A DNA stretch of 64,000 nt from Lobosporangium transversale (Eukaryota), in assembly GCF_002105155.1 (NCBI RefSeq), contig NW_019029012.1:186001-250000 (forward strand). The letters are read 5' to 3'. This document shows, piece by piece, positions 23,773-63,791 of the stretch. Made by a program: the position numbers and the translations under genes. The notes beneath the pieces are model-generated. The model ran no database searches. It had not been told where the DNA came from and saw nothing but the letters and a program-made list of their open reading frames with translations. How positions within the stretch are numbered: the stretch's first letter is position 1; each line of letters opens with the position of its first letter.

Positions 23773-26021
23773 TTTTTCCTTAATTCTTTTGCTCTGCTAC
23801 CAAGTTGATCCGTATCTTCTTGATAGTGAGCCAGTACATGAAGAAAGAAAAGCAAGAATGAGAGAGAAAAGGGGGGAGGGGATATATATGGTCCCGGCTT
23901 TCGGATAATAAGTCTAAGTCGTCATATTATTCAACTTGGTCAGCTAAAAAGGATTGAGCAAAAAAGTCAAGGTCCAAAGACAGCAATGTTCAGCGCTCCG
24001 CTCTTTCCGCTTTCTTTGCGGGGGGCCGTATGAAGCCCCAGGTTGTAATGAGCCTGTTCTTCATTAGATAGTGATACTATCGAGTTTGTAAATCGAATTC
24101 TCATCTCCATATTTTCTTCTATGATCATGTGCTGTGAAAAACTACAAGACTTCATAATTATTGACAGGAGAATAGAGGACGAGAACGAACAAAGACTAGC
24201 ATCTGTGAGACAAAACTTCAGATGGAAAAACAGGTCTGCCAAGTAGACATCCTTGAATAGCGATATCTTCTTTGAAAAACTTTGAGATACTGTACTAGTA
24301 GTTACTTTGATACTTGTGATGTATACGCTCAATTCAGGGCCTGGTAGAATGAATATAAACAGTGTATCGTACTGATGTACTAAGCATACCAACATGAGTT
24401 TTCTTTTTTTTCTGAAATAGAGAAATGAAAATGTTGACATGATAGTAAAAAACTATATCAGTCTCATGTATATCACTGCAAGGAATATCTTGCCTCAAAC
24501 GAAGACGCTCACCATACAATGGACCACTTCATTTCGTAGGTCACCTGTAAGAGAAAAATACAGCTTTGGTTGTTTCCGTGTTTCACATGTTTTATTGTCG
24601 TTCACACTTCCTGAACATGGATGTCAAGTAGTTTAACGTTGTTATATGGATACTCCACAAACCATAACAGTTGCCATCTCTTCCAATACCACAAGAGTGT
24701 TAACATTCTGAACATTTCCTGTTGAACAAGAGGAGGCCCAAGTCAAAATATTCGTGTTATGGGGATGACAACTTGATGATCTTAGAGCCATAAAGGCCCC
24801 CATTTCAAAAACAATCAGCGCCGAGAATCTAGAACTATTGAAAAAGAGCATATGCCAACAATCTTCTATTAAAGAACTGCATGAAGATCGTACCCATTAT
24901 GGCCAATAAAATATCTAAAATAATAAATTTTACTTTTTCTCATGACACCACACTGGGCGGAAAGTCATTTCAGCAGAAGAGGGATTGGTGGTGTTGTAAC
25001 TCCGTCGTAGGCGAAGGTTTGCCTTTCTTGTATGTCCTCTCATCAAAGACGCCTCTCTTCGGGTATAATAATATTCATCTAAGAGATGCCTCGTTCACAA
25101 GATAAAAGAAAACAAGAACAAACATCAGGCACCAAAAGCAGAAGTCTGCAAGAAATGAGGCCTGAATCAAGAATACTTCATTATAGTAGAAACATTAAAT
25201 CTCTATTTATGATACCATTAATTATACGGTAGCGGCAGGTCTTGTTTACATCCTCATTGTTATAAAGATAATAGTAGTAAAAAGATATGAAAGAATAATT
25301 AGTGCAAGTGCTGGATTGCTCCGATGAAGCAACATGTAAATCAGGTATCAATCAAATAATAATAGCACATTCACAGATATAATTATACTCTTGCCTTTTT
25401 TTCACGAGTGTTCGAAAGCGAGAGTGTCCAAATGTTCTGGAGACGCGCCTTTGATACAGGGTTGGACATCTAATGGTGTAGTCTTTCTTGCTTTTTTGTC
25501 CTGTCCCGCACTTTATTAGCCTTTTCTGCTACTTCTCTTCTTCGTTAGTACTTTCGTTTACTTTTTCTTTGCATTTCGTTATTTGGTGTTTTCTTTTCTT
25601 ACTTTTACTTTCATTGACTTCTTGGTACTTACCTTACTTACCTGAGACTGTCCACCCTACCACCCTATACAGTCCCTTACCCTTGAAGAAAAAAAATATA
25701 AAAAAAAACTTCTTCCCGGTATTCGCTTTCTTTCCTGTACTTTCGTTTGCTTTCACTTTTTTGCTATGCTTCTGTTTGTTTCTCTTTCTACTTTCTTGTC
25801 ATGCTTTCGTTTGTATTTCTTTAACGCTTGTTATCTTTTGACTCATTCTTCTTTGCTGGTTCTCTTTCTTACTATCCTTTGCTAGTTCATTTCCTTGTTA
25901 TTCTTTGCTGGTTCACTTTCTTGCTATGCTTTGCTGGTTCACTTTCTTGCTATCCTTTGATACTTCCTTTCTTATTATTCTTTGCTGCTTCACTTTCTTG
26001 CTGCGCTTTGATGGTTCATTT

Positions 26022-32963: not shown

Positions 32964-33093
32964 CAGCTTCAATCACTTTGATCAGTTTCAGTCAAAGTCT
33001 CCATTCCATCAGATAGACTTTTCCCCTCCTTTTACTCATTCAAGCATAAGTTTCCACATACAGCACTTTCTGTCTTTCCACTCACCTCTTTTT

Positions 33094-33250
33094 CTATTGA
33101 ATGGTCTACGAAGGATGGCCTATTCACATTGTCATAGGTGCCATGGACGTATGTCCCACCCGCATCACCCTATTAGCTCGAAAGGTAGGTGCAAGTCGGA
33201 TTAGCAGGGTCTTATTTAATATTTATACGGATATGGTACCGTAGACAATG
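33094..33250 (+). repeat. Dispersed repeat or gene-fragment copy A (homologous to 57008-57218)
   Basis: ATGGTCTACGAAGGATGGCCTATTCACATTGTCATAGGTGCCATGGACGTATGTCCCAC aligns with 57015 onward; encodes MVYEGWPIHIVIGAMDVCPTRITLLARK before a GT. Confidence 0.85.
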
Positions 33251-42200: not shown

Positions 42201-42463
42201 ATCTAATGAAGAACAGGCTCATTACAACCTGGGGCTTCATACGGCCCCCCGCAAAGAAAGCGGAAAGAGCGGAGCGCTGAACATTGCTGTCTTTGGACCT
42301 TGACTTTTTTGCTCAATCCTTTTTAGCTGACCAAGTTGAATAATATGACGACTTAGACTTATTATCCGAAAGCCGGGACCATATATATCCCCTCCCCCCT
42401 TTTCTCTCTCATTCTTGCTTTTCTTTCTTCATGTACTGGCTCACTATCAAGAAGATACGGATC
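34782..42463. repeat. Right arm of ~7.7-kb near-perfect inverted duplication
   Basis: Reverse complement of 23807-31509; differs mainly in homopolymer/low-complexity tracts and in having 13 rather than 14 copies of the 22-bp unit. Confidence 0.97.
39954..40248 (-). repeat. 22-bp minisatellite x13 (mirror of 26022-26338)
   Basis: GAAGCACCAAAGGATAACAAGG repeated from 39963 to 40248 (286 bp = 13 units). Confidence 0.95.
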
Positions 42464-42643
42464 CACTTACCAGCATCCGAAACTCTAAAAGGATATCTGT
42501 AATAAGGTACAGGCTTGTACTTAGTCATCGTTTTCTATACCATGCTCTGATGGAGTGCTACAATTCTTCTGATATTGGAAATGGCAAGAGGAGAAGAGGA
42601 GCGTCTTTATATTATTATTATTATTTCTATTTTATTATTAGAC

Positions 42644-52147: not shown

Positions 52148-53792
52148 TTACAACTTGGAACCATTGCTAAGGATCTGAGCACGACGTGCTCTGATTTTTT
52201 CATCCTTCTCGCGAATTTCGTCACCACGCATCAACTCGAACCGCGCCAACTGCATCATATGAACCTCGTCTGGACCATCAGCAATACGAAGCGTACGAGC
52301 GAGCGCATAGAAACGCGCTAATGGGAAGTCTTGACTGAGACCGGCAGCACCATGGGCCTGGATAGCTAAATCAACGGTGCGCTGCAACATTTGCGGTACC
52401 ATGATTTTGGCCATAGCAATATCACGCATTGCACCTTTGGCGTTCAGCTTGTCGATCTTGTCTGCAGCAGCAAGAACCATAAGACGAGCGGCATTGATTT
52501 CAATACGCATCTTGGCCACATCAGCAGCAACAGTACCGTGGCGGGCCAAGACCTTTCCGAATGTGCGACGTGAAGGGTTCGTAACACGGGAGATCATGAT
52601 GTCCAAAGTACGCTCTGCTACACCGATCGCACGCATGCTGTAAGATTGGATAAAAAAAAGATTTAGTTATTAATAATCTCAGTGTTTTAAAAAACCCATA
52701 ATAACTGATACCTGATGAAGTAACTATAAAGATGGGTATAATCCTCACCAGTGATGAATGCGGCCAGGTCCAAGACGTCCTTGAATAACTTCAAAGCCAC
52801 GTCCCTCTCCTGCAATGATGTTGGAGACAGGAACTTTGACGTTTGTGAATTTGACCTCACAATGTCCCTCCGGAGCATCATCGTACCCATACACGGTCAT
52901 AGGTCTGACTACCTCAATCCCTGGAGCATCTGCAGGAACGATGACAATTGACTGCTGTCTATACTTGTGCTCATTGTTAGGATCGGACTTGCCCATGACC
53001 AGGAAGACTTTGCAGCGAGGATCACCTGCACCTGAGATCCACCATTTGTGTCCATTGATAATATAGTGATCGCCCACACGCTCAATGCGAGTCTCAATGT
53101 TGGTAGCATCAGAGGACGAAACGGCAATCTCGGTCATGGCGAAAGCAGATCGGATTTCACCATTCATGAGAGGCACTAGATACTGTTGCTTTTGAGCGGG
53201 AGTGCCGTACTTTGCAAAGACCTCCATATTTCCGGTATCAGGTGCAGAGCAGTTGAGCGCTTCAGGAGCAACACGGGGACAACGACCTGTGATTTCACAA
53301 AGGGTGGCATATTCCAAGTTGGTGAGACCAGGACCCTCAGGGTAGCTCTTAGGAAGGAAAAGGTTCCAAAGACCGAGAGATTTGGCCTTTGCTTTAAGTT
53401 CTTCCATGATTGGGGGAACAGTCTATATCATTTCGGGAACATTGTGTGAGCTGGACGAATAAGAATTTTTGCCAAAGAGGCTTTTGACTGATGGCTAAAA
53501 AGACATTGAACATAAAATTTACCTTCCAACGCTGATCACCAGTTCCGACCTGGCTCTCATAGACTTCCTCCGCTGGCAAACAGTCATTCTAATAAAAAAC
53601 AGAATGGATAAAAAAAAAAGGCTTTATCTATCAGAGGCTGTTCTTGATTGAGTAGAAGGATGACGGTGAGGTAGTTGAAGTAGAGAAGTGTATTTGTTCC
53701 ATATCAGTTGATGATGGACATACTTCGACAAAGTCGATAAGCTTCTTCTGTAACTCCTGGCATCTTGGGGAGACCTCAAAGATGGATGTCAT
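52148..53792 (-). CDS. Acyl-CoA dehydrogenase (ACAD10/11-type dehydrogenase module), probably peroxisomal
   Basis: GLWNLFLP...[12 protein letters not shown]...SAFAMTE...SSDATNI...[14 protein letters not shown]...[17 protein letters not shown]...[13 protein letters not shown]; ends in SKL (PTS1). Confidence 0.95.
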
Positions 53793-55285: not shown

Positions 55286-55879
55286 CTTCCTCAGTTTCAC
55301 GTTTGTTTCTTTGAATCATTCATGTAAGACATGCAAACACGCCTGCAACTCATCAGAAAATATATTCACCACTAACAAACAATCCTTCAAGGCTCTTCCT
55401 CTTTCAGGAACATGGCCTTTATGGTCTGTGCAGTTCTATTGAACATTATAGACTTTGGAGCTCTATTCTGAAATGTTTGATGGCGAAATCAAGAGATCAA
55501 GAACTGCTTTTATTATTGTTCCCAGGCGGGGGCCTTTTATTAAAGATCCGTCATGATCAGATGCTCTGACCTTATTAATTAAATGGACGTGCTAAGCTTC
55601 AGTACGTAAAACCTAGTGACTGACAATGATATCTCTCATCATCCCGTCTTTTTCGTTCTACAAGTTATTAACGAGGCAAATAACGATCTCGAATTAACAT
55701 AAAAAGATCAACAAACCGCTTACGCATGTATTTCTTTCTATAAAAGTGGCCTGGAATAGACTAACGCCAAACTGCTTAAAAATACCTGCCATGGCGCCTT
55801 ACCTGTTTATAAATGCTATGCTGAATACCTACTGTCTAATGCTGGACGGATATGGAATGAATCCCCAAGTGTGCGAGTC

Positions 55880-56019
55880 GCTGGGCAAGTCGAATAACAT
55901 GACGACTTAAGCTTATTATCCGAGAGCCAGGACCATATATCTCCTCTTTTCTCTCTTTCTTCTTTTTCTTTCTTCACGTCCTGGCTCAAGAAGATGCAGC
56001 TCCACTTGGTAGCGGAGCA
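55880..56019 (+). repeat. Diverged third copy of the outer end of the large inverted-repeat arms
   Basis: gctgggcaagtcgaataacatgacgacttaagcttattatccgagagccaggaccatatat...cttcacgtcctggctcaagaagatgcagctccacttggtagcggagc aligns with 42326-42468 and with the reverse complement of 23790-23944. Confidence 0.85.
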
Positions 56020-57007
56020 GATTTTATTCACTTTGCTTTGTTTCACTTCTTTGGCAATAAAAGATTTCACACGTATATGGTCCTGGCTCGATGGATAATA
56101 GCCGATAATTGGCAAACAGAGTAAGAGCCAATTAAGTCTAACCAATGCATGTTTAATTATTTAACTTATTACTCGCTATTAACGACGACAATAGCTCTTC
56201 ACCTAGCATCACCTCAGCGAATGGAGGGAGGTATTCTTAGGCCTCCTCGGTATATGCTCGATATCCACAATCCCGATATGAACTGTCTCTCAAAGAAAGG
56301 TATAATATCTTACTTAATCATGTCAACATACCAAGCAATTTTATGTTAAGGTCAACTTATCTATATGCCTAGTTCATCCCTTTTAGTCTTATCATCATTG
56401 AAAGCAATATCGTCCAAATCTTTTCATTATTGACTCCTTTTAGCAAAAGTAGTCCTGATTGACCCGACCTTTGTATGCACGTGTTCAACCTCAAAAAGAA
56501 TACTCTGGGGGTGATCTTTTCAAGAGAGCTTCTAGGAAAGGTTGATTGCCTACAATTGGGTCGTCGAGTCCCAGAAGCGTGATTTGTCGCATCACCATCT
56601 CCTCATAATCCTTGATGACAGGGACAAAGCCTCGAACAGCAGACGATATTGACTCTATTGTGTCTGCAGAGATCCCTGATCGACACGGTGTCCTGCTAGC
56701 ATACGATACTGTGACATCCCAACATGACACATGGACCATGTAGGGTTCATAATTCTCGGATACCATACATAGTCGAAAGGAGATACAGTAAAAATTACCC
56801 ACGCCCAATCCTGGAAAACACCGCACGGAGTGAAGACGGCTACTCCAACTGTCATCGACGTAACAATCCTGAATGTCCCTTCGTAAACTCAAGAGGCAAC
56901 ACTGTCAATAACACCTGGGACGAGGATACCAATTGTTACGTACCGAGGCTTGGGAGTGCACCTCAGGAGCACCTCCGTTTTTATACATAAGGTCAGAAAA
57001 TTATGGT

Positions 57008-57218
57008 CTACTGAATGGTCTACGAAGGACGACCTATTCACATTGTCATGGGTACCATGGACGTATGTCCCACTCACACTACCCTTTTGACTCAAGAAGT
57101 AGATGCAGATCAGATTTGCAGGGCAGAGGGATCTTTTATTTAGTTACTCTCTTTATTTCTCGTCGGATTTTCAATGAAGAAAGGTGACACACATACGCCC
57201 ATGGCACCGTAGACAATG
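57008..57218 (+). repeat. Dispersed repeat or gene-fragment copy B (homologous to 33094-33250)
   Basis: Encodes MVYEGRPIHIVMGTMDVCPTHTTLLTQE; shares the downstream ATGG(C/T)ACCGTAGACAATG. Confidence 0.85.
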
Positions 57219-57478
57219 TGACGGTCATGGCGGGTCCTTAATAAAAAGCTCCCGCCTGGCAACAATAATAAAAACAACTTTTGATTTCCTTGACTTGCAC
57301 CGACGTAGAAAACATCTCACCAACGATCCAAGAAACAATCCTATAATATTCCTGACCGTTGTGGTTCTGTTAATGGTGCCAATGAAAATGATGAAGAATT
57401 GCAAAGCCAGTTAAACAGTGGAGAAGAGAACATTATCAGATGATTTGCATGACGACTTGATATTTTTGAAGAATTAAT

Positions 57479-57589
57479 CACTCTCCTGAGACCTCGGAGG
57501 GTCCAAGTATTTTTGAGACAGAAACTTTCGCTGCCTGCTTCACTACTTACAAATTTTTTGTGGGTGTGCTGGCACCCAAATACTTGTGT
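57479..57589 (-). ncRNA. Candidate Fanzor omegaRNA scaffold / structured element 3' end
   Basis: Immediately after the Fanzor-like stop codon: 9-bp stem 57578-57586/57504-57512, inner GGGTG/CACCC hairpin (57562-57577), GAAA-capped hairpin (~57518-57538) and terminal CTCC-GAG..CTC-GGAG hairpin (57483-57499). Function is inferred only. Confidence 0.4.
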
Positions 57590-60370
57590 CTAGCGTCGTG
57601 CGCGCTTTGCAGCCGGAGCAGGCGACTCTTCCGTGGGCTTGTACTTTGCAGGCCTCTCTTGCCTCCCAATTTGAGCAAGGCCGATTCTTGCGATGTTTTC
57701 CGCCCCTACTGAAGAATACCTTACATGTCCGGCAATGTTTAGAGTGAGGGTACACCGTCTCTAAAAAGCTATCGCAGAGGGGTCGGGGACAGCGGGCGCT
57801 GGTGTAAAATTCATGCGCCCCTACAGCGAAGTGTCCTCGTGCTTTGACCTAAGCGTTTCAAATGACAGTCGTTCATTAGCAAGGGTTCTATGGCTTTCCA
57901 GCTTTTCTTACTTTTTTTAAAAAAAGCCATACCTTTGTGACAAGGTGCCTCGTTATAGCAGTGTGCTTGCTGGGAACTCCTTTACTACTTTCAAAGGACC
58001 CTAGGCCGACGACAAGCACTCCTTTTTCCCCGAGCATCTTCAACGCTCACTGTACCGCGTAGTCGAACGTAGCTCGTTGGCCTTTCGTAGGTCCCATTTT
58101 TTTTTCAGGTGCCATCTGGACTCGTAGAACTCTTGAAGCACATCCAAATTCTTTGATCCTATCTGTGTCTGGGACTCCTCGTTCATCCATTGAAAGTACT
58201 CATTGTACGTATCCCTTCCAAACACAGGGATGATACACATACCCGGGTGACCAGGGGGACGTAGGAAAGTCTGAGTATTTTTTCACTTTTTTGTTCTCCC
58301 GCAAAAAAAGCTCAATGTCGCTCATATCTTCGTTTGTTTTCTCGACATCAAACTAGAAAAAAAAAAAAAAAAAAAAAAAAAAGAGTCTGAATAAAGAGCA
58401 TTTGATTGCAGAATATGCATGAAAATACCTTACACAAGCTATACCATTGCGTTCCTGTAGTGCTGACTTAATGATGTCTGTACTTGGCCCATTAGTAGCT
58501 CTGACGCTCTTGGAAATGAGATCTTTTTGGGATCAAAGCCTTGCACGTCCCCCAATGTGATGTCTATTTCCTTTATTGGGGAAAGTTCAGCGGTGGCCTT
58601 GAAATGTTCATAAGCGAGGAGATAATGGGGCGTTTCTACCGCCTTTCCTTGTTTCTTTGCCCTCGCGTAAGCTGAATTGGGGCCACCTTGACCACTCAAA
58701 AGAAGGGTGGCGAGACGGAAGGAATAATCATTGCTATCCAAGACCTCGTCCAGTGCCTTTTTCCTCGACTTTGCTGCCCCTGGTAACCGCATGATCCTCT
58801 CAATGTCCAAGGCAATCGCCCAGTATGCACGTCGGCGTAGTCGGTTGAGGACAACAACTGCCCCTCGGATCTGGCTTGCAATACTATCCCTTTCATCTGC
58901 GTCCAGTCCGCCTTTCCTTGCCATGGAGGCCTTAAGGGACCCAATTGTTAAGGGCTTGATAGGGTGCTTACTGCTGTAGCTGTGATCAACCTTCGTAGCA
59001 TCCTTCAAGTTCTTAATTGGTGCACCTTCTTTTTTAGCCCTGTGGGGCTTCTTGCCTTTGTGCTTCCGCTTTTGTTTTTTCTGTTGCTTCTTTTTTACCT
59101 TTTTCCGACGTGGTGGATGCCGGCCTATCGTGCTGACGGCAGTTACTGATATCAACTGTGCGCCCATCCAATATGCTCGCCTTGTCAGAAAAGATGGGCC
59201 GGAACTGGTTCCTATGTGACCCTTCCGCTATATATAATGATGGTGCGCCTTTACATTATCCAAGAAAGGGACTAACGATTAGTATTGGGGACGTATGGTT
59301 TCAAGGCCAAAACTATAGATTGAGCCTTCTTACGTTCTGCGGCGCTGCGCTCGCCTTTGCTGAGCCATTCTATGGCGAAGATCCTTTCCATTGAGTAGAC
59401 GCTGCTTGAAGTTATCGAACTCACTGTTCAATGGTAATGCTTGGGCCGACGTTTGATGGCCGGAAGTAAAAACACGGAGAGCTACTCTGAAACGGCCTTC
59501 TTCAGAGGCTGCGTTCCTTCCCAACACCTTACTAGCTTCCCTTAGGTAGTCCCGAAGCACTTTATTGTAGTTCTCGTTCCACGCAACGTTTCGAATTAAT
59601 CGAAGATTATTAACCGGGCCTAACGTCTCGAGGTTCCTTGAGTAGTCATTGCCTGCGATGGCACAGAATAACACCAGATGTGCGTGTGATGACAGTCTTA
59701 GTGCTTGGATAACGTTGTCTACGTCGTAAACCCCAAACTTCCGTCTACGGTGCGGAAGGGGTCGCACTAGGAAGCAGACTCGTTCGTACGCAAAAAAATC
59801 AGAGTCTTGGGATATCACGATCCTATCATTCTCCTCATTATGGCGCCCTATGCATGGGTCCGCTTCATATGCACACAGACAGACATCGAAGACAGAACTA
59901 AGGCCTGTTGCCAGCTGATCGTTGTCCTGGACGCTCAGGGTGTGGACTTCTCGAAGACCCCTCTGGATGCGCCTCATGACTTGAGGACGAGTCCATACCC
60001 CACTCCAAGAATTTCTCTCGAAGGTGCTCATATCGTTCTCCGAAGCATCCATATATTTTTCTCTTATGGCTTGCTGTTCTGTCCTTGCTTTTTCTTTCTC
60101 AGTACAAGGTTCTCCACCAATATGTATAGTCAGGTTGTCCGTTATGAAAAGATCCTTTATCACGAGAGCCAGGGACCTTCCTACATCGATGATGGATTCG
60201 TTTTTCATCTTTGCATGGACGACTCTGTGGAGGATGTCGTAATAGAACGTACCGAGGAGATCTACATGAACAGAATGGTCAGGATTTGCCGCCAAGAAAG
60301 TGCCCACGTCAGTTTCCGAAGGTAAAACCCCGCGATCCGCAACCAGTTTGAAGAAGGACTTCAGCCCCAT
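57590..60370 (-). pseudogene. Decayed XPG/FEN1-like PIN nuclease fused to a Fanzor/TnpB-like RuvC-zinc-finger C-terminus (spliced gene)
   Basis: N-terminus MGLKSFFK, HVDLLGTFY, YEADPCI, ISQDSDFFAY, AIAGNDY (PIN + H3TH); K-rich linker and helical region (58439-59167); C-terminus FYESRWHLKKKWDLRKA..FDYAV..LKMLG..VLVVGLGSF..GVPSKH..|VKARGHFAVGAHEFYTSARCPRPLC..KHCRTCKVFF/VGAENIARI..RPAKYKP. GT-AG intron 57849-57932; several frameshifts and stops. Confidence 0.75.
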
Positions 60371-61138
60371 GGTCAATATCTAAGCGAAAGAGAAAGAAAA
60401 AAGGAAAAATGGTGGTGATGAAAAGAAATGAAAAAGAAAAAAAAAAGAGCGACAAAGGTATAAAAGGATGAGCTTTTTTATGGTTTAAAGATCCAAAGTG
60501 GCCCTTGCTTTGTGCTTTGTGAGGAATTTAATGAATAAAAGAAGATTTATAATTTTGAACAGGGGTAATAAATGCATTGACAGATATGACTCGGTGATTA
60601 TATCCTTGTCAAAGGTAACAACTAAAGAAAAAAAAGTCTTTTTATCAGAGAATGGCTTCATATGATGCTCTTTGTTCCAACAGCCCCAGTACTATTGCGT
60701 TAAAGCAGAGATATTCATTGACTCTCAGATTCCGGCATCACTGGCGGAGATAGGGGTGATGTAGTTGCATGCGCTTATTGCTTGGAGTAAAAGCTATCTA
60801 AGCACCCTTTCTTACTGGACGATGCCTTGTTAATGGTGATATTGCGCAGCGCCTTGTGGATGGAGGGAGAGCAGAAGCGAGAGTGGTGGTTTTTGGTGGT
60901 CGTTTGGTGTGTGTATGTGTGAATTTGATAGATGATACCAATCACCAAAATATATGCATCTAGAAATACAGAAGCGAGATTGATACCGACGCGTTTGATC
61001 CTTTCCTAGGGATTGTTATAACCATGGGATGATTGTGGAGTGGCCACCAAAATAAAGTTTGTTTGGAGGCACCAATGGAAAACGCTTGTGTTTTGAACAA
61101 AAAAAGACGCCGCGATGTAAAATGTGTTTATACATGTA

Positions 61139-62474
61139 CAGTCACCTGAAATAAAGTTTGGACAAAATGGATTTTCTTGATTTTTTTTTGAACAACCTGG
61201 ACAAACAGCTCATATGCAACATACATAAAGACTTCATCAATACACATGAAATTTTACATGCTCACTAAAGAGGTCAATACTGTTATTTATTGGGGTTTTG
61301 AAGACGGCATTGTTAGAGTAGCAAAAGTGCCATGTAGGTTCAATAGTGAGTGTTCCTACCATCGACCCCATTCACTTCTTCCAGCCTTTCGGGCATGGTA
61401 GCGACAAGGCTGGCCAGCCTCTCTTGCGGTAAATTATTCCACTCTTCGATAAGAGCCCGTGTGAGAGTGGGAAGATCTCTTGGCCCTTTAGCGCGCCTAT
61501 CGAGTGCATCCGCAAGAAGTGACCATACATGTTCAATAGGGTTCAAATCTGGGGAGCATGAAGGCCAGTCTGGAATCCTCGGGATGCTGTTTTTTTCGCG
61601 CCATTCTTTTGCAATCTTACAAGTATGAACTGGAGCATTATCCTCCATAAGTATGCCATCCCCTACCTCAGCCATAAATCTGGCTAGCTCGCCTTGATAT
61701 ACATCTTCCACGAAACACCGTTCATCTTTACGACCTCTTTCAAATACAACCAACCGAGACTTTCTGGTTGCTGTGAACGCCCCCCAGACCATCAGAGTTG
61801 TTCTACCACTTTTGAAAGTGGGTGCGAGGCAATCATGATCGTACTTTTCCTCTACTTTACGCCAAACTCTTATTTGACGAAAATGCTCACCAACTTCAAA
61901 TGATGATTCGTCAGTCCAAACTACCCGATTCCAGTCTTCCATGGACCAACTCATATATTTTTTGACAAACTGCAGCCTCCTTTTTATATGTCCTTCTTTT
62001 AAGAATGGTTTTTTTACTGCAATCCGGCTGAAAATACCCAGTGAATGCAATGCCTTCGCAACTGTCCTCTCGCAAACTTTGTTCGGCAATTGGTTAGTGA
62101 TATCATTAAGAGTACACCTTCTATTCTGCTTAGTATGGCGAACGATGCTCCTGAGGTCCCGTTCACTTAGTACTTTGGGCCGTCCTGGGATCGGAGTGCA
62201 AGCAGTGGTGCCTCTTTCTTGGTACACCCTGATAATATTAATAACAGAGGTTCGGGGTACACCGCGTTGCAATGCGATTTCCGCAGCCTTCATGCCCGCG
62301 AGGTGCATTCCAACGATGATACCTTTATTCTCAATGTCTAAGTGTCTCGCCATGGTGGTTTACTCAAGCTGTTTGTATATGAAAAACAGGAAGGAAAGAG
62401 ATTGAAGGAAACGCTTCCCTACGTAACTATTTCAATATTTTATTTTTTTGTCCAATCTTTGTTTCAGGTGACTG
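61139..62474 (-). mobile_element. Tc1/mariner DNA transposon, full length (1336 bp)
   Basis: 29-bp TIRs CAGTCACCTGAAATAAAGTTTGGACAAAA vs CAGTCACCTGAAACAAAGATTGGACAAAA (2 mismatches), TA on both sides (61137-61138, 62475-62476), single transposase ORF. Confidence 0.95.
61340..62353 (-). CDS. Tc1-family transposase, 337 aa, DD35E
   Basis: HTH-GRPKVLS-HTH; KKPFL; VVWTDES; LMVWGAF; LMEDNAPVH; WPSCSPDLNPIEHVW; uninterrupted ORF. Confidence 0.95.
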   Translation of the reverse strand: MARHLDIENKGIIVGMHLAGMKAAEIALQRGVPRTSVINIIRVYQERGTTACTPIPGRPKVLSERDLRSIVRHTKQNRRCTLNDITNQLPNKVCERTVAKALHSLGIFSRIAVKKPFLKEGHIKRRLQFVKKYMSWSMEDWNRVVWTDESSFEVGEHFRQIRVWRKVEEKYDHDCLAPTFKSGRTTLMVWGAFTATRKSRLVVFERGRKDERCFVEDVYQGELARFMAEVGDGILMEDNAPVHTCKIAKEWREKNSIPRIPDWPSCSPDLNPIEHVWSLLADALDRRAKGPRDLPTLTRALIEEWNNLPQERLASLVATMPERLEEVNGVDGRNTHY

Positions 62475-62476
62475 TA

Positions 62477-62595
62477 CAGTAGGCTCGTTCCCATCCCTCT
62501 TCACTTTATAAAGGTGACAGGAAATTCCATTTCCTTTTTGAGTCACCTAAAGTGAAGGGGCTGGGAACGAGCCTAGGATGGGAACGAGCCTACAG
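62477..62595. mobile_element. ~120-bp foldback / miniature inverted-repeat element abutting the Tc1 TIR
   Basis: GTAGGCTCGTTCCCATCC (62479-62496) pairs with GGATGGGAACGAGCCTAC (62576-62593); inner arms CTTCACTTT/AAAGTGAAG, AGGTGAC/GTCACCT and AGGAAAT/ATTTCCT; starts TA|CAGT. Confidence 0.7.
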
Positions 62596-63482
62596 AAATC
62601 AAAGAGATGCTTCAGCTGCTTATTCGTGCACACAGTGATTGACGAACAAAAAAGGAAACAGGATTTGCGAAACAATAAAAAAAAAGTCCACAGCAACTGT
62701 TTGCTCACATACATTTTTTTCACCGTTGTGTCTGTATCTCTTCTAAGCTTTCTGTCTGGCCGTTTAACACAAGGAACCCTCAGAAAGAGAAATACCTCGC
62801 ATGATTGGTGCCAGGTCTGAAAACAACAATAATACAATGCTGTACGTGGAAGATAGGGTCTAGAAACTATACCATTGATCACAACTGCTACTCATGCTCT
62901 CTTGCCAAGGACTTTAACAGGCATACCAACCCCTTCTTCCTTGCTCTCATAACCGCTTACATCCTTTCGATGCATTCTTTCGCCGTTTATGTCCACTACA
63001 TCTGAACCACACACAATTCACCACTCACTCCAACAGAGATATTTGTATCACCTTGGGTATGATATGTTGCTGTGGTTCCCTCTGGTTTCACTAGGCCCAA
63101 CAAACTCTATAAGCTGTTTACCAAGCCAGATATATCAAGGGAATGCAAGAAGACGAGGAAGCGAACGATGTGACAAATCAAGTCTTGCCGAGCTGTACAA
63201 GAAAAGATCAAGTTAGTCAAGCTCCATGGTGCGGAAGAATGAAACCACTCAGATTGCCCTCCTTTCAAGTCGATACTACGGCAGCGAATATTATCGCTGT
63301 TATATTAGATCAGTCAATAAATAAACGATACAATGGACTCCCAAGGGGATGCTAGTGTCATGCGAAAGTTTTCATAAGTTTTTTATTTGCACAAATAAAG
63401 AAGCCAGGATAGCTCCATGACAATTTAGTTTTCGGTCATTTATTTCGACATCGAAATAAAATTTCAAGACAATGCCCATGGA

Positions 63483-63791
63483 TTGCTGGATTTTAAGCCC
63501 ATTTATAATGGCAAATTTGCCCTTGTGACGGACGAAGGGATAAGCGTTTTCGCTCAAAAGAATGGTCCTGTACATATATATGTTGACAACCAAACTCTCT
63601 ACCATTGTCTCTTAAAAGGTTCCTCATCAAACAGCTATGTTAATAAGACCTTAATTAAGATATGGCGCCTACTTGAGCGATTGCAACGTCGTGTTGTTCG
63701 AACTTGGATTCCCTATGAGGATAACCCTGTGGATTATTTTTCGAGGGTGCAGTACTGTGGGTTTCATCCCAAGGAGGTAAACATCGGGTAG
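63483..63791 (+). pseudogene. RNase H fragment of a DIRS/Ngaro-type (tyrosine recombinase) retroelement
   Basis: VHIYVDNQTLYHCLLKGSSSNSYVNKTLIKIWRLL...VVRTWIPYEDNPVDYFSR matches the DIRS RNase H pattern DN...KGxS...W(I/V)P..xN.xD.(L/F)SR; upstream RT not intact. Confidence 0.7.

Follow-up and report, generated by a model that had tools for sequence, protein, structure and literature searches.

We identify a family of proteins, mostly from Mortierellaceae, in which a PIN nuclease fold of the EXO1/FEN1 kind and a Fanzor1 fold, presumably that of an RNA-guided nuclease, are encoded as a single chain, keep the catalytic residues of both, have been inherited together and, in Lobosporangium transversale, belong to a repeated element. 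The copy from which the family was recognised lies on contig NW_019029012.1 in a stretch of 64,000 nucleotides, hereafter the window, and is dead. It serves only as a pointer, and the useful objects are intact relatives such as P0166, P0164, P0159, P0169, P0090 and the one encoded on metagenome contig L001.

The window gene (60370 to 57590, minus strand) consists of four exon remnants, in the same order as in full-length relatives. All the motifs named in the original prediction lie where it claimed on that strand: MGLKS (60370), HVD (60268), EAD (59866), DSD (59806) and GNDY (59653) in the N-terminal part; a Lys-rich linker (starting at 59119), LVVGLGSF (58016) and VGAHEFYTSARCPRPLC (57824) in the middle and C-terminal part; and HCRTC (57737), VGAENIARI (57709, in another frame), RPAKYKP (57655) and the stop (57590) at the end. 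That these form one collinear gene is borne out by P0166, which aligns over residues 1-638, 646-682 and 951-1121 (E 7e-58 and 3e-18), far above chance. Exon 1 (59334..60370) encodes the EXO1/FEN1-like PIN nuclease and its H2TH motif (amino acids 1-346) and gives weak XPG_I and Rad2 matches by itself; sibling proteins, which the source names Lobosporangium transversale, reach 94% identity over it. Exon 2 (58445..59250) holds a conserved NQFRPIF segment, the Lys-rich linker, likely an NLS, and the start of the Fanzor WED/REC region. In the exon 3 remnant (57933..58352), which includes the LVVGLGSF strand, a REC piece meets the helical RuvC insertion at 58232, and exon 4 (57590..57848) carries the RuvC-II Glu (EFYTS), the C4 zinc finger, RuvC-III and a basic C-terminal tail.

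Intron 2 (58353..58444; 92 nt, GT-AG, phase 0), across which sibling P0152 reads HYRNAM-FDVEK, and intron 3 (57849..57932; 84 nt, GT-AG), which homologues read across, separate the later exons. Intron 1 (59251..59333; 83 nt, GTAAGA donor) was placed from sibling proteins P0001, P0002, P0151 and P0152 and a frame test. An intron had been presumed near 59228-59334: its donor, at 59333, stands, and its acceptor falls, a stop being met five codons after the splice; none of the four acceptors tested, 59228 included, leaves the frame open. From the sibling reading across this intron, RRRT-GAPSF..RNQFRP, the acceptor maps to 59252-59251, and we infer that an AG there has been damaged to the AA of the window copy. 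No intron joint occurs among the 15 of 38 joints listed; run X7, RNA by our guess, covers the sequence ahead of the start codon sparsely, which we do not take as evidence.

A HMMER search with exon 1 matched 358 proteins at E ≤0.001. We counted 148 of the 150 matches listed, leaving out P0029 and P0057 as repetitive or chimeric. The named members that were looked up are all Mortierellaceae, and several others are metagenome proteins without a name. Relatives with both halves in a single chain, again mostly from Mortierellaceae, are 1,050-1,500 aa long; the long members have XPG-type matches at the front and PF07282, the TnpB/Cas12f zinc-finger family, at the back, the latter above cut-off in 5 of 33 scanned proteins. 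The original prediction made the unity of PIN and RuvC depend on the presumed intron. It does not, because L001 encodes P0089 as an uninterrupted, stop-free ORF of 1,281 codons with both modules, so that the fusion is independent of intron prediction; this ORF and the single-chain relatives establish the two domains in one protein, and they are not always found as separate genes. P0089 and P0112 keep the D-E-D triad and lack the four cysteines, and the L001 gene (567-4412) and P0112 mark an intronless or single-frame subgroup that retains both catalytic sets and has lost the four-cysteine zinc finger.

The same architecture was recovered from the other end. A reverse search with the last 119 residues of P0028, reaching close relatives only, gave 15 matches, 579-1,843 aa in length. 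Ten have the PIN head, every one of them at least 1,037 aa long; the other five are shorter, start at positions equivalent to P0166 residues 274-614 and look like truncated models. No alternative N-terminus was seen among the 15 matches. A word-based search with the PIN exon gave no match among the longer proteins and the A1 profile only two proteins, a shortfall that reflects limited sensitivity because the HMMER search found those proteins. Viral contigs and prokaryote genomes yielded no relative at pattern-search sensitivity; one viral-contig match was rejected as acidic low-complexity sequence.

Trees built separately from the PIN and RuvC parts of 19 proteins agree: each of the seven starred PIN clades is also present in the RuvC tree, the deepest split is common to both, and pairwise identities in the two parts are correlated (rho 0.53; 0 of 2,000 permutations). 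What the trees give is a single gene apparently passed on whole; such congruence neither dates the fusion nor names the donor.

Profile and structural comparisons place both halves. We built a profile from 15 long members; its start matches FEN1, EXO1 and Rad2 (E 3e-12 to 2e-10), and its positions 885-1098 match SpuFz1 (8gkh; E 8e-6). A single-sequence fold of exon 1 was of no use (pLDDT 38.8); an AlphaFold model of P0166 from a 120-row alignment was confident (pLDDT 86.5, pTM 0.72). Foldseek with this model returned SpuFz1 as its top four matches (E 2e-11 to 4e-10), with FEN1 also among the top. Predicted residues 2-315 align with human EXO1 (Z 22.4, rmsd 3.3, 283 aligned) and the head with FEN1 (Z 21.1), the model extending further along EXO1 (2-335) than along FEN1 (2-288). 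Residues 444-1120 align with nearly the entire SpuFz1 (chain 18-633; Z 17.0, rmsd 3.5, 468 aligned) and with PpFz1 (Z 17.8). Profile (the SpuFz1 match and PF07282 in 5 of 33) and predicted fold thus concur on the TnpB/Fanzor RuvC that had been proposed for the C-terminal region; the P0166 model has the bilobed WED/REC/RuvC/NUC fold of Fanzor1, and profile and model both give the head the PIN core, helical arch and H2TH of FEN/EXO1/XPG. In the model, the head appears as an addition to a complete Fanzor1, joined via a basic, partly disordered linker.

The active sites are conserved throughout the family. The seven acidic residues of the head are kept in 79 of 85 (D37), 116 of 119 (D85), 125 of 137 (E169), 137 of 138 (D171), 137 of 141 (D189), 136 of 142 (D191) and 132 of 136 (D242) proteins, the arch residues in 119/123 (K92) and 118/123 (R99), and Gly2 in 69/76; among the 148 matches, conservation at the nine catalytic and arch positions amounts to 91-99% of the rows having a residue there. 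We take these positions to correspond to human FEN1 numbering, in agreement with the profile alignment. In P0166 the Fanzor1 site comprises D883, E1056, four cysteines, the first at 1063, and R1092-D1093. Its spacing of E1056 and the first cysteine fits the RuvC-II Glu about six residues ahead of the zinc finger that passages of PMC13565253 give as diagnostic of Fanzor1, and the Fanzor1 motif, D-x(125-275)-[TS][TS]-xx-C4 zinc finger-x(5-50)-RD, is present in intact relatives and absent from the window copy. Intact relatives with both domains and the RuvC D-E-D, for which the original prediction called, do exist: in 10 of the 22 long proteins (≥950 aa) no residue of the nine-residue PIN set or the triad is missing, eight of these also having the four cysteines, and the remaining 12 miss at least one catalytic position, mostly through gene-model gaps. 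Both active sites are retained at 20-35% identity and in many genera.

The window copy, as had been foreseen, is dead, having lost a PIN Asp and Arg, RuvC-I and RuvC-III. Its PIN site reads G85 and Q99 for D85 and R99, substitutions that inactivate it. Exon 2 has an 8-nt frameshifting deletion at 59119, exon 3 a 1-nt deletion at 58079 and a premature TGA at 58049, and exon 4 an 11-nt deletion at 57710 that takes out the catalytic RuvC-III Asp. A deletion at 58232, absent from the earlier account, has removed ~255-315 aa including RuvC-I; sibling P0098 retains the GCDPG there. Contigs of DNA run X1 differ from it: Asp at codon 85 (position 60117) is the majority allele (261 of 274 depth), the majority contigs have none of the lesions at 60117, 59119, 58079, 58049 and 57710, and contigs run on at 58232 into sequence missing from the window copy. 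A fully intact copy within Lobosporangium transversale is likely, as read from unphased contigs.

The gene sits within a larger repeated element of the minus strand, 57545..63545, delimited by depth steps and joints in sequencing contigs and by repeats, and seen as raised contig depth from 57545 to ~63545. An 857-nt contig has depth 163 against 8-13 for single-copy contigs, which suggests ~15 near-identical copies, depth being a rough guide. The 5' end lies at ~63542-63545, the 3' end is truncated in the window copy, and a TA flank is possible. Once nested elements are subtracted, the 5' region comprises ~1.7 kb without a recognised gene or notable Pfam match. We found no terminal inverted repeats of this element and saw no transposase gene belonging to it. 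Summed contig depth at the two ends (63425-63545 and 57545-57665) exceeds that of the middle, which may mark short non-autonomous, ghost-like derivatives.

Two insertions interrupt the element in the window copy only. A Tc1/mariner transposon (61135..62478, minus strand) has its own 33-nt inverted repeats and a transposase frame (61340-62353) open over 338 codons, and it adjoins a MITE-like insertion of 110 bp (62480..62590) that is bounded by terminal inverted repeats and has one end in duplicate. Most other copies jump 61136-62591 (joint depth 122 in X1), so both were inserted later. The Tc1 was ruled out as the carrier transposon: its repeats bound the transposase alone, and other copies are without it. 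The element is thus not a Mariner-Fanzor composite, with transposase and Fanzor inside common inverted repeats. Tc1 contigs at a depth of ~190 with 0-2 differences represent near-identical copies and apparently recent activity. In another locus (L003, 1-2700, minus strand) a spliced frame containing SWIM (E 5e-4) stands head to head with a gene of the PIN-Fanzor family and is a possible carrier transposase; we take this frame to be Mutator-like.

The conserved sequence past the stop (57545..57589, minus strand), with a 6-bp hairpin at 57561-57578, is a candidate omegaRNA scaffold. Loose contig ends gather at 57545 (4-5 contigs in each of three DNA runs, agreement 0.77-0.8), and beyond this point other copies have ~22 nt more in common, an extension not present in the window. 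Because contigs continue past 57545 with this common sequence, the window copy is probably clipped and the true right end probably lies ~70 nt after the stop. Folding of the 3' region is no better than that of shuffled sequence (z -0.4 to 0.1), and Rfam gives it no family match, only sub-threshold hairpin matches. The stop-to-end distance resembles the 75-80 nt omegaRNA region described for SpuFz1 in passages of PMC10432273, an analogy from which we infer an omegaRNA of ~70 nt from the right end plus a guide from the flank.

Each half has well-studied counterparts. The predicted fold is like that of SpuFz1 from Spizellomyces punctatus (PDB 8gkh/9ceu-9cez) and PpFz1 (9cf0/9cf1) over the whole WED-REC-RuvC-zinc-finger region (Z 17-17.8, ~470 aligned); shared too are the D-E-D triad with Glu just ahead of the zinc finger, the repeated, element-borne setting and the short conserved 3' end. 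Unlike Fanzor1, the family is extended at the N-terminus by ~430 residues that make up a second nuclease and a basic linker; its members have 1,050-1,500 aa against ~640 in Fanzor1 and an acidic low-complexity insertion before RuvC-I, and terminal inverted repeats were not seen. The head shares with EXO1, FEN1, XPG(Rad2) and GEN1 the PIN core, the helical arch with its Lys and Arg, H2TH, seven acidic residues and the N-terminal Gly2. However, it is only 13-17% identical to them, most members fall under the Pfam XPG_I cut-off, and it rides on a mobile element joined to a RuvC nuclease in place of host repair tails. In the fungal Mariner, MuDR, Helitron and Sola elements that bear Fanzor1 and in the unclassified MCi-2 and MCi-5, as described in passages of PMC3627910, the Fanzor1 gene likewise occupies the 3' end, and some of them are also without inverted repeats or transposase; none is reported there with a nuclease head, and the Tc1 here is a later insertion, not a carrier.

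Some of these proteins have already been catalogued as FZ1, the second nuclease having seemingly gone unremarked. In the examined part of PMC10432273 supplementary file 3, ORZ22893.1 (a sibling of the window element), P0090 (KAG0303305.1) and an entry that NCBI calls a Rad2 nuclease are labelled FZ1, labels on which our placement in the Fz1 branch rests, and 7 of 17 rows have the PIN start. The words fused, fusion, flap and exonuclease are all absent from the main text of PMC10432273. No nuclease-head fusion is mentioned in passages of PMC10530073 (text and two supplements), PMC10711439, PMC3627910, PMC11423790, PMC13565253, PMC10691335, PMC5499597 or the preprint 10.64898/2026.06.03.729735. 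The original prediction knew of no characterised PIN-Fanzor fusion, and our literature search, with subscription papers, Repbase entries and bioRxiv supplements outside its scope, found no paper on one.

We propose, as a roughly even call, that in intact relatives of the element the Fanzor part cuts under a guide RNA from the 3' end, the head trims the 5' ends and repair copies the element back. The right end would give the guide RNA, its last bases coming from the flank as in characterised Fanzor1. A transposase supplied in trans would excise the element and leave an empty donor site, which the Fanzor part would cut under this guide. The tethered EXO1-type head would then resect the 5' strands (5'-to-3'), favouring homologous repair over end joining, so that the element would be copied back in what amounts to restorative homing. 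The excision step that homing would repair is itself unseen, the element having yielded neither a transposase nor a terminal inverted repeat. Passages of PMC13565253 note that restorative homing requires homologous repair and that eukaryotes use end joining more, and with an engineered Cas9-EXO1 fusion HDR is reported to go up and NHEJ to go down (PMC11107001). That fusion, Cas9-hEXO1, and T5exo-Cas12f (PMC12337685) likewise tether a 5' exonuclease to an RNA-guided nuclease, whereas the PIN-Fanzor pairing is natural, co-evolved and apparently ancient.

The main alternative keeps the fusion and changes the task of the head, which as a flap- or RNA-processing nuclease would remove displaced flaps, whether at the R-loop or as repair DNA is synthesised, or trim the 5' end of the guide RNA from the mRNA, in place of DNA-end resection. 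EXO1 and FEN1 match the predicted head nearly equally well (Z 22.4 and 21.1), which allows an exonuclease, flap or RNA role; FEN-like XPG_I members are exo- as well as endonucleases (passages of PMC5499597), and the same transcript would end in the presumed guide. Against this, the model follows EXO1 further than FEN1, and those Fanzor1 proteins that have been characterised produce their guide with no head of this kind (passages of PMC10432273 and PMC11423790), and we consider this reading unlikely. Quite unlikely, in our judgement, is a role of the two-nuclease protein as mobilising enzyme in its own right, with guided cuts at new sites and resection driving recombination-dependent copying without a transposase. 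The ~15 near-identical copies, seen with neither transposase gene nor terminal inverted repeats, would suit it, but Spu-1 elements have no transposase either and are believed to be mobilised in trans (passages of PMC10432273), the L003 family gene stands head to head with the SWIM-containing frame, and homologous repair accounts for copying to allelic, not new, sites. A domesticated or defensive nuclease that destroys foreign or rival DNA under RNA guidance would be in keeping with the retention of both active sites at 20-35% identity in many genera; the element instead behaves as selfish DNA, being dispersed in many copies, of which those annotated are mostly fragments, hosting nested transposons and having apparently landed in what remains of a retroelement, and this makes the reading very doubtful. 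That gene prediction joined two neighbouring genes or nested elements is scarcely credible: members are mostly predicted gene models and no spliced read was seen among the joints listed, but the L001 ORF is uninterrupted, the linker motif is conserved, the trees are congruent and 0 of 15 RuvC-tail matches have another N-terminus.

Returning to guided cutting followed by resection and copying back, a broader and more tentative reading, possible though we would not lean on it, is that an EXO1-like nuclease was acquired in the distant past, in a single event, by a Fanzor1 lineage that uses it to have its RNA-guided breaks mended by homologous repair and that may spread with no transposase; copies amplified recently in Lobosporangium transversale may still be active. 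The role of Fanzor in eukaryotes is still open according to passages of PMC10432273, and with a Fanzor1 subfamily that brings along an end-processing nuclease the homing hypothesis can be tested directly. The subfamily would be a naturally evolved counterpart of hand-built exonuclease fusions and, if the reading is true, a ready-made HDR-biased or large-deletion genome editor.

The surroundings of the element are rich in repeats. Directly at its 5' end lies what is left of a retroelement RNase H (63546-63791, plus strand; RVT_3, E 0.003), presumably DIRS-like by its motifs, into which the Fanzor element appears inserted. Outside the element lie a 64-nt inverted-repeat pair (55493-55556 and 57225-57288) and a second pair (57038-57068 and 57191-57221). 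The interval 56894-57279 is highly repeated in sequencing contigs, with a further copy at 33093-33209, and represents small non-autonomous elements, and a dispersed ~140-bp repeat with 78% identity occurs at 55880-56020, 23790-23944 and 42326-42468. Further along, 52148-53600 (minus strand) holds a spliced host gene, putatively acyl-CoA dehydrogenase-like as recognised from its translation.
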